DNA of 23,492 bases from Candidatus Thorarchaeota archaeon (GTDB lineage: Archaea > Asgardarchaeota > Thorarchaeia > Thorarchaeales > Thorarchaeaceae), in assembly GCA_038893995.1 (NCBI GenBank), contig JAWAQK010000039.1, forward strand, positions 1 through 23,492, in the 5' to 3' direction. Below are positions 1-23,492 of this stretch, piece after piece. The notes under the pieces are model-generated. The model saw only the letters and a program-made list of their open reading frames with translations, had not been told where the DNA came from and ran no database searches. Position 1 is the stretch's first letter. Each line of letters opens with the position of its first letter. The position numbers were made by a program, and so were the translations under genes.

Positions 1-299
1 CCTCACGGCTTCTGCCGAGTGTCAAGTCGGCCATCGACTCTGGTCTGGTGGTTGCATTGACATCTCAGTGCATCTGGGGACGCGTCAATCTGAACGTATA
101 CAGGACCGGTGTCGAACTCCTTGAACTGGGTGCTGTGCCCTGTGGCAACATGCTCTCTGAAACTGCGCTTGTCAAGATGATGTGGCTCCTTGCCAACACT
201 AGCGACTCAGAAGAAGTCGCCCAGAAGATGCCTATTCCACTTGTAGGTGAAATCAACTCCCGAACCATGATCTCCGATTACGATATAGATGGGGCGTAG
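1..299 (+). CDS. gatD: Glu-tRNA(Gln) amidotransferase subunit D, 3' end (partial at window edge)
   Basis: Frame open from position 3. It contains the asparaginase-type C-terminal motifs TSQC.WGRVNLNVYRTG and MLSETALVKMMWLL, and lies 6 bp upstream of gatE. Confidence 0.93.
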   Translation, partial: SRLLPSVKSAIDSGLVVALTSQCIWGRVNLNVYRTGVELLELGAVPCGNMLSETALVKMMWLLANTSDSEEVAQKMPIPLVGEINSRTMISDYDIDGA

Positions 300-305
300 A
301 ACACC

Positions 306-2222
306 ATGACGGACACGATGAACCCGACCATGAGAGTTGGTCTTGAGCTTCACCAGCAGCTTGATACCAAACGAAAGCTCTTCTGTCCCTGTCCGCCTAC
401 GATCCGTGATGATCCTCCTGATGGCTTTTTCATCAGACGTCTTAGACCCACGCGAAGCGAGCTGGGGGAGACCGATCCCGCTGCACTATTCGAGTTCAAG
501 AGGGGGCGTCTGTACTATTACGAGTATTACACCGATACTACCTGCTTGGTAGAGTGTGATGATGAGCCTCCTCATGACATGGATGAAGAGGCAATTGATG
601 TCTGTCTCACCATCGCAGAACTACTCAACTCAGATGTTGTGGATGAAATACACCCAATGCGGAAGATAGTGATTGATGGGAGTAATACGAGCGGATTTCA
701 GAGAACCGCAGTGGTCGCGTTGGGTGGCTCAATTACGGTCTCAGGCCGGCCAATCCGAATTCAGTCAATATGCCTGGAGGAAGATGCAGCAAGAGCTGTC
801 GGTGACGGTGACTCCAAAGAGATCAAGAGATATCGACTGGATCGACTGGGTATCCCACTAGTTGAAGTATCGACTGCGCCAGACATAACATCTCCTAAAG
901 AAGCCCAAGAAGTGGCCCTTGCTTTAGGTTTGCTACTGCGATCCACAGGCAGAGTGAGGAGAGGACTTGGCACAATTCGACAGGATGTCAATGTGTCCAT
1001 AGCGGGCGGGGCCGTCATTGAGATAAAAGGATTGCAGGAAATTGAGCTACTGGGTACGACAGTCGAACTCGAGGTACGCAGGCAAGAACGGCTCCTTCAA
1101 ATTCGTGATGAACTCGCTCTTAGAGGAGTTCGTCCTGAAGACATATCTGGATCCATCCACGATGTCACTACCGTATTCGAACACACACAATCGGGACTCA
1201 TCAGAGCTGCCATCTCGAAGGGCGGCGTTGTCCTGGCAGTTGTTCTCCCCGGCTTCTCGGGTCTTCTGAGCCGTGAGATCCAACCTGGACGGCGTTTTGC
1301 CACTGAACTGTCTGACTATGCAAAGTTCTGGGGAGGTGTCGGTGGGATAGTCCACACAGATGAGCTTCCGCGATACGGCATCACTGCCGAAGAGGTACAC
1401 AGCCTTCGCAAAATGGTCGGTGCGCGCAATGACGACGGCGTCGTTCTTGTGGCATCCGATGTCGATTCATCACGCCTCGCCCTCGATGCGGTTGTTGACA
1501 GAGCCAGACACGCCGTAAGAGGCGTGCCTCCAGAAACACGCGTTCCGCTTCCAGATGGGACGACCAAGTACGCCCGTCCCCGTCCAGGCTCCGAGAGAAT
1601 GTATCCAGAAACTGATGTCCGTCCGGTGAAGATCTCCCAATCGCGTCTGAGGTCGATTCTCGAAACCCTGCCCGAACCCCTAGACAAGAAAGAACAGCGG
1701 TTCACGAGTGAATACGGGTTGAGTCGGGAGCTCGCCCGACAGATCGTGCGCTCTCCCCACCTAGATCTATTCGAACATATCCTCAGTTCGGTGAATGTCC
1801 CTGCAACCCTTGTAGCCACCACGTTGGAGAACACACTCGTGAGCCTAAAGAGAGAAGGATGTCCAACTGACAATCTTTCTGATAGTGCTCTTCTAGAGGT
1901 CTTCCGCGCAGTATCTGCGGGGAGAATCTCGCCCGACCAACTGCCTGACCTTCTCCGAATTATCGCTGAACAGCCATCGACCGGGGTTGAGCAGGCAATA
2001 TCCTCGATGGCCACGTCTTCTACCAGTACAGATGATGCCCTTCGACTCATAAGACGAGTCGTCAACGAACGTATCGACTATGTTCTAGCTCGTGGAGAGA
2101 ATGCATCTGCTGGGCTGATGGGCATAGTTATGAAGGAACTCAGGGGCAAGATTGATGGGAAAACCGTGAAGCAGCTCCTTGACAATGAAATATGGCAGGC
2201 TCTCAATCAGAACAGAGGGTAA
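306..2222 (+). CDS. gatE: Glu-tRNA(Gln) amidotransferase subunit E
   Basis: 638 aa. Motifs GLELHQQL, KLFCPCP, MRKIVIDGSNTSGFQRT, LEEDAAR, LDRLGIPLVEV, RGLGTIRQDVNVSI, RPRPGSERMYPETD; AspRS-like insert; C-terminal YqeY-like LMGIVMKELRGKIDG. Confidence 0.98.
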   Translation: MTDTMNPTMRVGLELHQQLDTKRKLFCPCPPTIRDDPPDGFFIRRLRPTRSELGETDPAALFEFKRGRLYYYEYYTDTTCLVECDDEPPHDMDEEAIDVCLTIAELLNSDVVDEIHPMRKIVIDGSNTSGFQRTAVVALGGSITVSGRPIRIQSICLEEDAARAVGDGDSKEIKRYRLDRLGIPLVEVSTAPDITSPKEAQEVALALGLLLRSTGRVRRGLGTIRQDVNVSIAGGAVIEIKGLQEIELLGTTVELEVRRQERLLQIRDELALRGVRPEDISGSIHDVTTVFEHTQSGLIRAAISKGGVVLAVVLPGFSGLLSREIQPGRRFATELSDYAKFWGGVGGIVHTDELPRYGITAEEVHSLRKMVGARNDDGVVLVASDVDSSRLALDAVVDRARHAVRGVPPETRVPLPDGTTKYARPRPGSERMYPETDVRPVKISQSRLRSILETLPEPLDKKEQRFTSEYGLSRELARQIVRSPHLDLFEHILSSVNVPATLVATTLENTLVSLKREGCPTDNLSDSALLEVFRAVSAGRISPDQLPDLLRIIAEQPSTGVEQAISSMATSSTSTDDALRLIRRVVNERIDYVLARGENASAGLMGIVMKELRGKIDGKTVKQLLDNEIWQALNQNRG

Positions 2223-20558: not shown

Positions 20559-20672
20559 ACTGAATCCTCTGGTGAGCAGGGCTGTACTTAAACTTCTGTC
20601 TGTTCTCAAGGGCCTCTTGAAGCACAAAGCGGAAATTAGAGCCTGACATTGTTGTCAGGTGAGTGTGTTGTG

Positions 20673-21650
20673 ATGAACATCAGACGGCTTCAGCAGACCG
20701 GAGGTAAGCTCGGCAACTCATTTCTGGTTATTGTGCCGATGGAGTGGGTCAGACGTCATGGGCTCAAGAAGGGGGACCCTATTGTGGTTTCTGAGAGAGA
20801 GGATGGCTGTTTGCTTCTCGACCCCCGACTGCCACGTTCAGGCGAAGCTAGGAGAGCAGTGATTCAACTCGAATCCAATCTGAAATGGTCCATTACCAGC
20901 ACCTATCTTCTTGGCTTCGACGAGATCCGCATTGTTAGTGTTGACCCTCTGACAAGCGATATGCGAGATGAGGTGAGACGGATAATCAAGAGATTTGTTG
21001 CCCTTGAGATAACCGAGGAGAATGAGAATGAGATCGTACTTCAGTGCCTTGTTGACCCATCCACGATTTCCGTTGAGAAAGCCATGAAGCGAATGAGCCT
21101 GATAACATCTACTATGTTGCGGGATGCAGTACAGGCATTCGTCACAGGGGCTCGAGATCTTTCGGAGTACGTGTGCCAGAAAGATGAAGAGGTAGATCGT
21201 TTCTTCTTTCTCATGGTCCGTGAACTGCGGTCAGCTACGCAGTACCCCAGCATCTCCGAGAAAATGGGTATCCCTCCTGTCAAGGCTCTTGACTTCAGGC
21301 TAGCAGTGCAGTACATTGAACGGATCGCTGACCTGGCTGTCGATGTGGCACGCCAGGCCACTGCGTCCCCAATTGACGTCATACTGGCAGAGGATGTGAA
21401 ACGGATAGCAGAGTTTGCTTCTGAGATGCTCCACAAATCAGTAACAAACCTCTTCAAGTTCGATCCTGATGTTGTAACATGGGTAATGGGTGCTGAGAGA
21501 GACCTAGTCGATGATGTAGGCCGCATGCGAACTAGAATCATCGGCGCGGCAAAGGACTCGGCCCAGGCCTGTCTTCAGGTGATTGAATGTCTCTTGAGAA
21601 TCGGAGAAACAGCAAAGGATATTGTCGACCTTGCTCTGCCTCCGACATGA
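20673..21650 (+). CDS. phoU: AbrB-PhoU-PhoU phosphate uptake regulator family protein
   Basis: RRLQQTGG...S..V..P.EW....GLKKGD (AbrB), YLLGFDEI, DEEVDRFFFL..R, YIERIADLA, RIGE...DI. Confidence 0.9.
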   Translation: MNIRRLQQTGGKLGNSFLVIVPMEWVRRHGLKKGDPIVVSEREDGCLLLDPRLPRSGEARRAVIQLESNLKWSITSTYLLGFDEIRIVSVDPLTSDMRDEVRRIIKRFVALEITEENENEIVLQCLVDPSTISVEKAMKRMSLITSTMLRDAVQAFVTGARDLSEYVCQKDEEVDRFFFLMVRELRSATQYPSISEKMGIPPVKALDFRLAVQYIERIADLAVDVARQATASPIDVILAEDVKRIAEFASEMLHKSVTNLFKFDPDVVTWVMGAERDLVDDVGRMRTRIIGAAKDSAQACLQVIECLLRIGETAKDIVDLALPPT

Positions 21651-21813: not shown

Positions 21814-22392
21814 TTACTGGCACCGAGGTGCAACAGCTTCCTGCAATGCCCTTTGGAGCAACAGATCCACGGCCTCTACAACGTTGGTTCCATCCTTGGC
21901 GACTGTTCTTAGAACGGGCACGCGTTCGGGTATTCCCAGATGATTTCTCAGTGTGAATTCACTTACTGACGATGGCAGGTCTGCCTTGTTGAGACACACC
22001 ACTATGGGGACCCAATCCCTTGCCTCAGATAGGAGGGCCATCAGTTCATTCCAACTGGAGAGATTGTCCTCTAACAGTTCACTCTGTGAATCTGCTACGA
22101 ATACGACCCCATCAGTCCCGACGAGCACGACCTCTCTAGTTGAGCTGTAAAACTCCTGTCCGGTTGCAGTCCATATGTTTACGTTCATGCTCCATGTGTT
22201 ACCTAGAGGAATCTCTAGCGTTCCGAAGTCACATAACATCGTTCTTCCCATTGAATTATCGATAGACATCAACTTGTCCTGACTACCAAAAGTTGAGAAA
22301 AGCCACTTTATGGAAGTAGTCTTGCCGCTCATTGCGGGACCAAAGAACACCAACTTGATGGCGACTGACCTAGAACTGTAGTCTACAATCAC
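21814..22392 (-). CDS. MglA-type small GTPase
   Basis: IKLVFFGPAMSGKTT (G1), GRT..DF (G2 with MglA-type Arg), TATGQ.FY...R (G3), DGVVFVADSQ, NKAD (G4), TVA (G5). Closely parallels the Myxococcus MglA pattern. Confidence 0.93.
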   Translation of the reverse strand: MIVDYSSRSVAIKLVFFGPAMSGKTTSIKWLFSTFGSQDKLMSIDNSMGRTMLCDFGTLEIPLGNTWSMNVNIWTATGQEFYSSTREVVLVGTDGVVFVADSQSELLEDNLSSWNELMALLSEARDWVPIVVCLNKADLPSSVSEFTLRNHLGIPERVPVLRTVAKDGTNVVEAVDLLLQRALQEAVAPRCQ

Positions 22393-22404
22393 AGTCCTTT
22401 CCCC

Positions 22405-23325
22405 CTATCCTCCCCACATACTCTCCACCCACTCTCCAAGCCCCAGTAGTCCGCTTCCTCTTATACAGTCCGAGAAGTCCTCGTACCACTCCGACTTCAT
22501 GAAACGCATCATGTCGTCCAGACCTCCAATACTCCATCCTATTGCCTCAAACAGATTGCGCTCAGCCAACGTTGCTCGAGCGCCCAGTTCCCTGAGGATC
22601 CTTATCCTAGAGAGAATTGTCAGTGCGCGTCGAGCTGCGTGAACGTATCTACTGATCTCCTCCTCAAACATGTCCCTCACCACCTTTTCTGCCTCGTCAT
22701 CAAGTTGCAATAGAGCCATCATGGTTGGTTCAGGTAGATCAGTGTCGTGTAGGGATCGTGAGAGAATTCGTCTTATCCTTTCGAGAGCCTGGTTCCTATT
22801 CTCAAGGATCTTGGCAACGATCGTCCTCTCTACAGTCAGAGATGAGTCGCACTCCTTAAGTTGCCCAAATCTAATCACGGAGGGCGATATCACTCTGACG
22901 ATGCCACAGTTTTCAGAAGTTGATTCGATGTGTTCCAGAAGATCGGCTAGAGCCTCCTCAGTGACACTGGTTCCCATGACAACGTTGTCTATGGGGACTG
23001 CAATGATCCAGCCGACAAAAGTACTGATTCTCTCAGTCAGAAGACGAAAACTGGCTGACATCGAGCACACCACAGTTCTGACCACCTCGTGATCATGGCG
23101 TTCTTCTTCATGAGCATCCAGGATCTCTGCGTCGGTCGTAAAGTCTCTCCAGAACACGAGCTTGTGTCGGTGAGGACAGAGTGCAGCAACGCTGTCCACG
23201 ATTTCATCAATCAGCTCGATGTCAGCACCCACTACCACAACTGGCAGTCGGTTGAGAACTGAATGGAGTAGTGCCGGGAACTGATTTCCCAAGAGCTCCA
23301 TCAAGCGTAACACGGAGTAGGTCAC
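22405..23325 (-). CDS. Uncharacterised 306-aa protein with possible DENN/folliculin-C-like domain
   Basis: Clear CDS in the operon. The N-terminal LMELLG..F..LLHSVL...PVVVVG.D..LI..IV..V..LCP pattern resembles the cDENN start; the domain call is by eye. Confidence 0.6.
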   Translation of the reverse strand: MTYSVLRLMELLGNQFPALLHSVLNRLPVVVVGADIELIDEIVDSVAALCPHRHKLVFWRDFTTDAEILDAHEEERHDHEVVRTVVCSMSASFRLLTERISTFVGWIIAVPIDNVVMGTSVTEEALADLLEHIESTSENCGIVRVISPSVIRFGQLKECDSSLTVERTIVAKILENRNQALERIRRILSRSLHDTDLPEPTMMALLQLDDEAEKVVRDMFEEEISRYVHAARRALTILSRIRILRELGARATLAERNLFEAIGWSIGGLDDMMRFMKSEWYEDFSDCIRGSGLLGLGEWVESMWGG

Positions 23326-23492
23326 TGCTTCCTCCCTGCCACAACGAGTCTTCCTGCCTCATGCGAGAGCAGGAGCTGTTTCAACTCCTCCGTTATGCAT
23401 GGCTCTCTCTCTGTTACTACATTGAGCACTCTCCTTGCCTCGTCTATGTAATGTTTCAGCAGAATACGCATCAGGCCCAATTTCTGGGTGTT
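23322..23492 (-). CDS. Roadblock/LC7 (MglB-like) protein, 3' end (partial; not in ORF track)
   Basis: Own translation: NTQKLGLMRILLKHYIDEARRVLNVVTEREPCITEELKQLLLSHEAGRLVVAGRKQ*. LGLMRILLK resembles the last helix of MglB (LGLVRLRIK). Its TGA overlaps the next GTG (GTGA). Confidence 0.6.
   Translation of the reverse strand, partial: NTQKLGLMRILLKHYIDEARRVLNVVTEREPCITEELKQLLLSHEAGRLVVAGRKQ

Follow-up and report, generated by a model that had tools for sequence, protein, structure and literature searches.

Three co-directional minus-strand genes at the end of a Candidatus Thorarchaeota contig (JAWAQK010000039.1, here C39), which encode a tandem Roadblock protein, a DENN-fold protein and an MglA-type small GTPase, would be the Thorarchaeal copy of an Asgard Roadblock-DENN-GTPase module forming, by analogy with known systems, a self-contained GTPase switch; a probability of about 0.6 was given to this reading. 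The window analysed here is the whole contig (23,492 nucleotides), taken from an assembly of 82 contigs (2.33 Mb, 91% complete), and the public sequencing runs holding this stretch were labelled as hot springs metagenome, with no RNA run listed among them. The three open reading frames (ORFs) were located at 23322-23492 (open at the 5' end), 22405-23325 and 21814-22392.

The operon is very probably the module predicted by Liu et al. (bioRxiv 10.1101/2020.10.19.343400; Nature 2021), and the finding itself is already known. In that work an operon of Roadblock, DENN and small GTPase families was described as conserved across most Asgard archaea, the GTPase was noted to be distinct from Rag, and the module was regarded as a strong candidate guanine nucleotide exchange factor (GEF) analogous to FLCN, with a comparison to FLCN and Ragulator. 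A first-pass annotation of the same DNA had implied that the layout was new, which could not be maintained because both the operon and the folliculin/Ragulator analogy had been predicted by Liu et al. The additions made here are modest: gene 1 was pieced together from two contigs to its full length, its product was found to be a tandem Roadblock protein, the GTPase was assigned to the MglA type, a common phyletic pattern of the Roadblock and DENN genes was observed at family level, and the trio was found to adjoin the 16S rRNA gene in Loki-like genomes. No experimental test of the trio was found in the literature, and it was not covered by the papers on structures of Asgard Roadblock and GTPase proteins (PMC10933270) and on longins of Asgard archaea of the type found in GTPase-activating proteins (GAPs) (PMC12290439).

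The three proteins

The middle gene (gene 2, 22405-23325, minus strand, stop TAG) encoded a protein of 306 amino acids (aa), for which an AlphaFold (AF2) model was built from an alignment of 34 sequences. The predicted local distance difference test score (pLDDT) was 92.5 and the predicted template modelling score (pTM) was 0.88. A core DENN alpha/beta domain (residues ~1-160) was followed in the model by a helical d-DENN domain (~164-282), organised around a pair of very long helices (164-192 and 209-246), and by a conserved C-terminal tail. When the model was compared exhaustively with 48,161 PDB representatives by VIA-align, the five best matches were all DENN proteins and spanned model residues 1 to ~285, namely DENND10 (Z 13.6), the C-terminal DENN domain of folliculin (3v42 and 6nzd, Z 13.2 and 13.1), C9orf72 (Z 11.3), SMCR8 (Z 11.2) and DENND1A (Z 9.9). 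The top six Foldseek matches were FLCN or DENND1B with probabilities of 0.97-1.00, at E-values of 1.6e-3 or weaker which did not pass 1e-3. In the ESM Atlas, eight of the nine neighbour clusters outside its own cluster were DENN-type and the ninth was unannotated; the neighbours included DENND11/LCHN, Avl9, DENND1A, SMCR8, a Heimdallarchaeota cluster carrying the Pfam Folliculin family, and two clusters without common annotation, one of them carrying Pfam DENN.

The 306-aa protein itself had no match in Pfam or NCBIfam. One member of its family (P0125, residues 5-62) was aligned to positions 4-62 of Folliculin_C with an E-value of 4.8e-4 and 20.2 bits, under the cut-off of 27, over the same stretch and in the same register to which the first-pass annotation had pointed. 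Its proposal that the middle gene began with a cDENN-like pattern and lacked a longin domain was thus borne out by the AlphaFold model, VIA-align, Foldseek and ESM Atlas, together with this weak family match.

No longin or u-DENN domain was present in gene 2: the chain opened at the first core-DENN helix, with model residue 1 aligned to FLCN residue 345. The family comprised 160 clusters at 90% identity and 63 representatives at 50% identity, the latter drawn from a library of 1.8 billion proteins, and every orthologue was about 285-310 aa long. The named clusters at 90% identity were annotated as 'hypothetical protein' of Thor-, Odin- and Hodarchaeota. No longer, fused form of the DENN protein was found in a dedicated search; the long matches P0157 and P0177 among the representatives were repetitive proteins with spurious short matches, and the extension of P0130 (400 aa) carried no Pfam domain. 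Gene 2 is therefore taken to encode a longin-less protein of core DENN and d-DENN, which starts where the DENN domain of FLCN starts.

Twelve residues of gene 2 were invariant (R26, P28, R53, F62, E75, R83, W106, E166, E211, R233, E279 and W304). The last of them lies in the C-terminal tail (window 22405-22440, the last 11 codons), which read G-D/E-W-x-D/E-S-x-W-G in nearly all lineages and was preceded by a linker (residues 293-298) of very low model confidence. A tail conserved to this degree resembles a peptide for docking onto a partner.

The first gene (gene 1) was represented in the window by a 56-codon 3' piece (23322-23492, minus strand), which aligned with the C-terminus of 315-aa orthologues and gave no Pfam match when taken alone. 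In relatives this gene had about 315 codons and matched Pfam Roadblock/LC7 in two stretches (E 6e-9 and 35.9 bits in the related locus L005). The rest of the gene, about 258-260 codons, was located in the same genome at positions 3-782 (minus strand) of a second contig, C5, by a search with the L005 protein, of which residues 2-258 were matched. An 8-bp overlap, TGGGTGTT, was common to the window end (23485-23492) and C5 positions 1-8, the reading frame was continuous over the join (...VWIDHNT / QKLGLMRILLK...), and the joined product of 314 aa was 65% identical to the L005 orthologue in a gapless alignment. Public-run contigs extended 554 and 213 bases beyond position 23492, so the window end is an assembly break. 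The suspicion that the operon reached past the window proved right, with the remainder of the gene on C5.

The C5 part of gene 1 matched Robl_LC7 with 41.3 bits against a cut-off of 23. In the AlphaFold model of the L005 orthologue (pLDDT 80.8), the order alpha-beta-beta-alpha-beta-beta-beta-alpha occurred twice, at residues 1-119 and 164-282, with a poorly modelled linker between the two domains. Roadblock/LC7, LAMTOR2 (p14) and MglB were matched by this model in Foldseek, and the same search also returned solved Roadblock proteins of Thorarchaeota (Thor-RB) and Prometheoarchaeum and the multi-longin chains of Mon1/Ccz1. Gene 1 encodes a fused tandem of two Roadblock/LC7 domains, and the upstream gene is thereby the Roadblock gene that had been postulated. 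The segment KLGLMRILLK, which had been read as an MglB-like helix, is indeed the last helix of Roadblock domain 2 (residues 263-282 in the relative's model). The extra helix proposed after it (293-301) did not fare as well, being modelled at a pLDDT of about 55 which dropped to 34.

In Roadblock domain 1, a D-G-x-P loop immediately ahead of strand 2 (residues 27-30, L005 numbering) was nearly invariant. A 'GP motif' is carried at the corresponding position by the GAP-type longins FLCN, NPRL2, SMCR8 and C9orf72 (PMC12290439). The loop may simply be a common motif of Roadblock/LC7 domains.

The last gene (gene 3, 21814-22392, minus strand, GTG start) encoded a small GTPase of 192 aa. Its best sequence matches in the PDB were four MglA entries (including 3t12 and 6hjh) at E-values of 7e-29 to 1e-28, and the next was Rab7 at 6e-8. 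The P-loop GPAMSGKT, the switch I motif GRT, the G3 motif T-A-T-G-Q and NKAD were all present; in G3 the Asp of Ras was replaced by Thr, and the catalytic Gln was there. In the alignment GRT fell on the intrinsic Arg and the Thr of MglA, and T-A-T-G-Q on T-V-P-G-Q of MglA. GPAMxGKT, GRT, ATGQ and NKxD were invariant across 18 orthologues, in agreement with the earlier description of an MglA-type GTPase with intact motifs, Arg and Gln. Pfam gave generic G-domain matches only (Roc, Arf, Ras and Gtr1), of which the Gtr1_RagA match was limited to the G domain and was weaker than Roc, Arf and Ras. The protein consisted of a G domain only, without the C-terminal Roadblock domain, and no CAAX box, no N-terminal Gly2 and no lipidation motif was found in it. 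By these sequence features gene 3 is classed as an MglA-type GTPase which is not specifically Rab-like, and which is not Rag-type because the C-terminal Roadblock domain is missing.

Organization and conservation of the locus

The Roadblock stop codon TGA and the GTG start codon of the DENN-like gene overlapped as GTGA (23322-23325, minus strand), which suggests translational coupling of the two genes, and the same junction in relatives had an identical 4-nucleotide overlap or a gap of at most about 20 nucleotides. The DENN-like and GTPase genes were separated by a 12-nucleotide spacer, GGGGAAAGGACT (22393-22404, minus strand); this purine-rich sequence may be the ribosome-binding site of the GTPase gene. 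On re-reading, the gene positions, strand order, GTGA overlap and 12-nucleotide gap of the first-pass annotation were all correct.

The trio was widely conserved. All 24 genomes sampled from the same family carried the DENN gene, as did seven genomes of other Asgard families, and the order Roadblock, DENN, GTPase was kept together with the orientation in 11 same-family and seven distant loci. Twenty further loci, which added families f16, f23, f27, f29, f30 and f31 and more Loki-like genera, were arranged in the same way, and their gaps did not exceed about 110 nucleotides. The order was kept in all 39 relatives' loci that were read, which came from 14 Asgard families.

In a profile survey of 301 Asgard genomes with completeness of at least 80%, the DENN profile was matched in 188 genomes and the tandem Roadblock (E ≤ 1e-40) in 180; the surveyed relatives are not independent, and these counts carry no statistic. 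At family level the Roadblock and DENN genes go together, with both found in 13 families and neither in 15. Two other families, f5 and f22, had only weak DENN matches (E ~1e-4 to 1e-5, probably paralogues) without the Roadblock gene. The common phyletic pattern and the fixed order argue for one functional unit. The expected conservation of the trio was thus confirmed, both by the 18 and 20 relatives' loci and by the survey, which agrees with the broad Asgard distribution given by Liu et al.

Upstream of gene 1, the join to C5 placed a gene for an HD-domain phosphohydrolase (431 aa, Pfam HD and HD_assoc_2), as in relatives. The TTG start of gene 1 (C5 position 782, minus strand) was preceded by GAGGT at a distance of 8 nucleotides (C5 787-791) and, about 55-70 nucleotides upstream, by GGGGGGAATAAATAGG (C5 838-853), which resembles a B recognition element (BRE)/TATA sequence. 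As read from the sequence, GGGGGGAATAAATAGG and GAGGT look like a plausible archaeal promoter and ribosome-binding site, so gene 1 would be the first gene of the operon. Downstream of the GTPase gene, a convergent plus-strand gene with MazE/AbrB-like and PhoU domains occupied window positions 20649-21650, while same-family relatives carried CTP synthase there (L005 3150-3914; L003 3094-3915). The trio therefore keeps its internal order while its surroundings vary.

In the Loki-like family f9 a distance of about 300 bp separated the trio from the 5' end of a 16S rRNA gene, and the trio was transcribed away from that gene (L031 4718-5395, L032 4773-5734, L036 4756-5449, L037 4749-5295 and L020 1-368). 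Many f9 contigs ended 0.3-1.3 kb upstream of the Roadblock gene because the 16S rRNA gene adjoins it. This position could hint at a growth-related role. Several Loki-like loci also contained a second MglA-like GTPase of 228 aa, a paralogue about 32% identical to the trio GTPase and converging on it (L020 3703-4386, L031 303-989, L033 631-1317, L036 709-1392, L037 739-1416 and L043 668-1345).

Possible mechanisms of the putative switch

It is established that the Roadblock dimer MglB serves MglA as its GAP and that DENN proteins function as GEFs of Rabs or within the GAP complexes of FLCN and C9orf72. By analogy, the most likely role of the fused double Roadblock is that of the MglB homodimer: it would sit over the switch regions of a single GTPase, hold the intrinsic Arg and Gln in place and thus act as GAP or as docking platform, and having both domains in one chain would set a 1:1 stoichiometry with the GTPase. 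For the DENN protein the most likely role is that of an exchange factor acting on the nucleotide state, in the manner of DENND1 with Rab35, or of a co-regulator or scaffold on the Roadblock platform, comparable to FLCN-FNIP on Ragulator-Rag. This functional reading of the trio is plausible, and the specific split in which Roadblock is the GAP and DENN is the GEF was put at somewhat below even odds. A three-chain complex prediction (L005 Roadblock and GTPase, with DENN as partner) gave a score of 0.10 (mark 0.32), which speaks neither for nor against a complex.

The DENN protein could also bind the tandem Roadblock in place of the missing longin, so that the two would form a composite GAP, or a dual GAP/GEF, like FLCN-FNIP or C9orf72-SMCR8, in which DENN would have no catalytic role of its own. 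In FLCN, NPRL2 and SMCR8 it is the longin pair and not DENN that carries the GAP activity (PMC12290439), and the coincidence of the DENN start with that of FLCN (residue 1 against FLCN 345, and the register of the P0125 match), the 4-nucleotide gene overlap and the one phyletic pattern are consistent with such a division. The MglA-type GTPase, however, has its own Arg and needs none from a partner, and the orthologue alignment of the Roadblock protein gave no candidate for an arginine finger. In addition, no fused Roadblock-DENN or longin-DENN form of the family was found, and the topologies of Roadblock and longin differ. The nearly invariant D-G-x-P loop of Roadblock domain 1 does lie at the position of the GP motif of GAP longins, but this loop is common in Roadblock/LC7 proteins generally, and a composite of this kind was considered unlikely.

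It is quite improbable that the DENN protein is instead an effector or adaptor, which would bind the GTP form and connect the switch with an output such as membrane, cytoskeleton or pilus machinery. In that case the tandem Roadblock would be the GAP by itself, and possibly the GEF through its C-terminal helix as reported for MglB. No conserved output partner was found beside the trio, whose neighbours were the HD protein and CTP synthase in Thor-like genomes versus 16S rRNA in Loki-like genomes, and the DENN proteins surveyed either are GEFs (those of the DENND type, for Rabs) or belong to GAP complexes (FLCN, C9orf72/SMCR8). Nevertheless, MglB alone has been described with dual GEF and GAP activities on MglA, the proposed MglA GEF RomRX was recently reinterpreted as an effector, and the strongly conserved tail after the low-confidence linker resembles a docking peptide.

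For the preferred reading, a self-contained switch formed by the three proteins, several points weigh on the other side. Binding between the three proteins and their activities are predictions from genes and models, and the equation with Fig. 5b of Liu et al. was made by gene set and interpretation. Eukaryotic DENN GEFs and FLCN-type GAPs use a longin, which is missing here, and the Roadblock topology is different from that of longin. Neither the DENN nor the Folliculin_C models of Pfam match the window DENN protein, and a search of PDB sequences with the gene 2 family profile returned chance-level matches and no DENN protein. With the sequence signal of gene 2 below curated thresholds, its DENN homology rests mainly on the predicted fold, and RecA/PilT-type ATPase domains came next after DENN in the structural comparison (Z 8-10, residues 1-160 only).

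The last of these points, in which RuvB-like, FlaI, GspE, PilT and other ATPase domains were matched, would suit a gene 2 product that is a degenerate P-loop/RecA-like domain with a helical appendage and resembles DENN by convergence in the predicted model, as would the missing Pfam DENN and PDB sequence matches, but this is very improbable, since the five best structural matches cover both lobes (1-285), the top six Foldseek matches and eight of nine ESM Atlas neighbour clusters are DENN-type, and P0125 matches Folliculin_C in the right register. A degenerate P-loop NTPase was rejected for gene 2, which had no Walker A motif (the loop from strand 1 to the helix read VVVGADIEL) and whose ATPase matches were confined to one lobe.

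Comparison with known systems

Eukaryotes use small GTPases and their Roadblock/longin and DENN regulators to organise membrane traffic and nutrient signalling (for example Rag-Ragulator-folliculin and C9orf72-SMCR8), and the trio bears on the origin of these GTPase regulators. As a compact operon it offers a minimal system for DENN function without a longin partner, and it is also suited to relating the logic of MglA/MglB to the eukaryotic one. The genomic observation is already published and refinements only are added by this locus; the value lies in biochemistry. The double Roadblock might supply in trans the longin half that eukaryotic DENN modules carry in cis, the trio then being a pre-fusion state of regulators of the FLCN-FNIP/C9orf72-SMCR8 type. 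This is quite doubtful, and if true it would provide a direct prokaryotic ancestor-like form of the Roadblock/longin and DENN logic of the eukaryotic lysosomal nutrient pathway. The first-pass annotation had proposed such a supply in trans as well as a three-part GEF/GAP switch, and neither gained support from the analyses.

Compared with the operon of Liu et al., the same three gene families were adjacent and co-directional here, and only the labels were refined, in that the Roadblock protein was a fused tandem, with LAMTOR2, MglB and Asgard Roadblock proteins as its nearest folds, and the GTPase was specifically MglA-type rather than Rab-like.

The Mon1-Ccz1 tri-longin GEF of Rab7 (8jbe, 9lol) gave the top Foldseek matches of the tandem Roadblock and likewise has several longin/Roadblock-type domains per chain. 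It differs in being a heterodimer with three domains per chain, and the root-mean-square deviation was 18-19 Å over about 300 columns; thus the individual domains match and their arrangement does not. DENND1A/B with Rab35 (3tw8, 6ekk) and DENND10 of Commander (8p0v) share core-DENN and d-DENN with the window protein (Z 9.9 and 13.6), whereas these eukaryotic proteins have an N-terminal longin (u-DENN) lobe and their identity to it is just 10-15%.

The first-pass annotation had presented the locus as a candidate archaeal counterpart of Rag-Ragulator-FLCN signalling. The identities of the parts were upheld, while a Rag-type GTPase and an FLCN-type longin with a catalytic Arg were not found. The comparison amounts to an analogy, given a GTPase that is not of the Rag type and lacks a C-terminal Roadblock domain. 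Like FLCN-FNIP/Rag-Ragulator (6nzd, 6ulg, 8dhb) and C9orf72-SMCR8 (6lt0, 7o2w, 7mge), whose DENN domains could be superposed at Z 13.2-11.2, the trio would combine Roadblock/longin and DENN parts in the regulation of a GTPase, and its Roadblock partner resembles LAMTOR2. Unlike them, the window DENN has no longin, no longin with an arginine finger was identified, and the components are three separate small proteins. In contrast to Rag-Ragulator, the GTPase of the window carries its own arginine and is without the C-terminal Roadblock domain.

The MglA-MglB polarity switches of Myxococcus xanthus and Thermus thermophilus (3t1q, 6h5b, 6izw) have neither the fusion of the Roadblock domains (314 aa here) nor a DENN-fold gene in between, and the trio differs from them further in its archaeal host and in having no known link to motility. 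With these systems the trio shares the MglA hallmark motifs and a Roadblock gene in the operon, and its two Roadblock domains per GTPase parallel the 2:1 complex of MglB and MglA.

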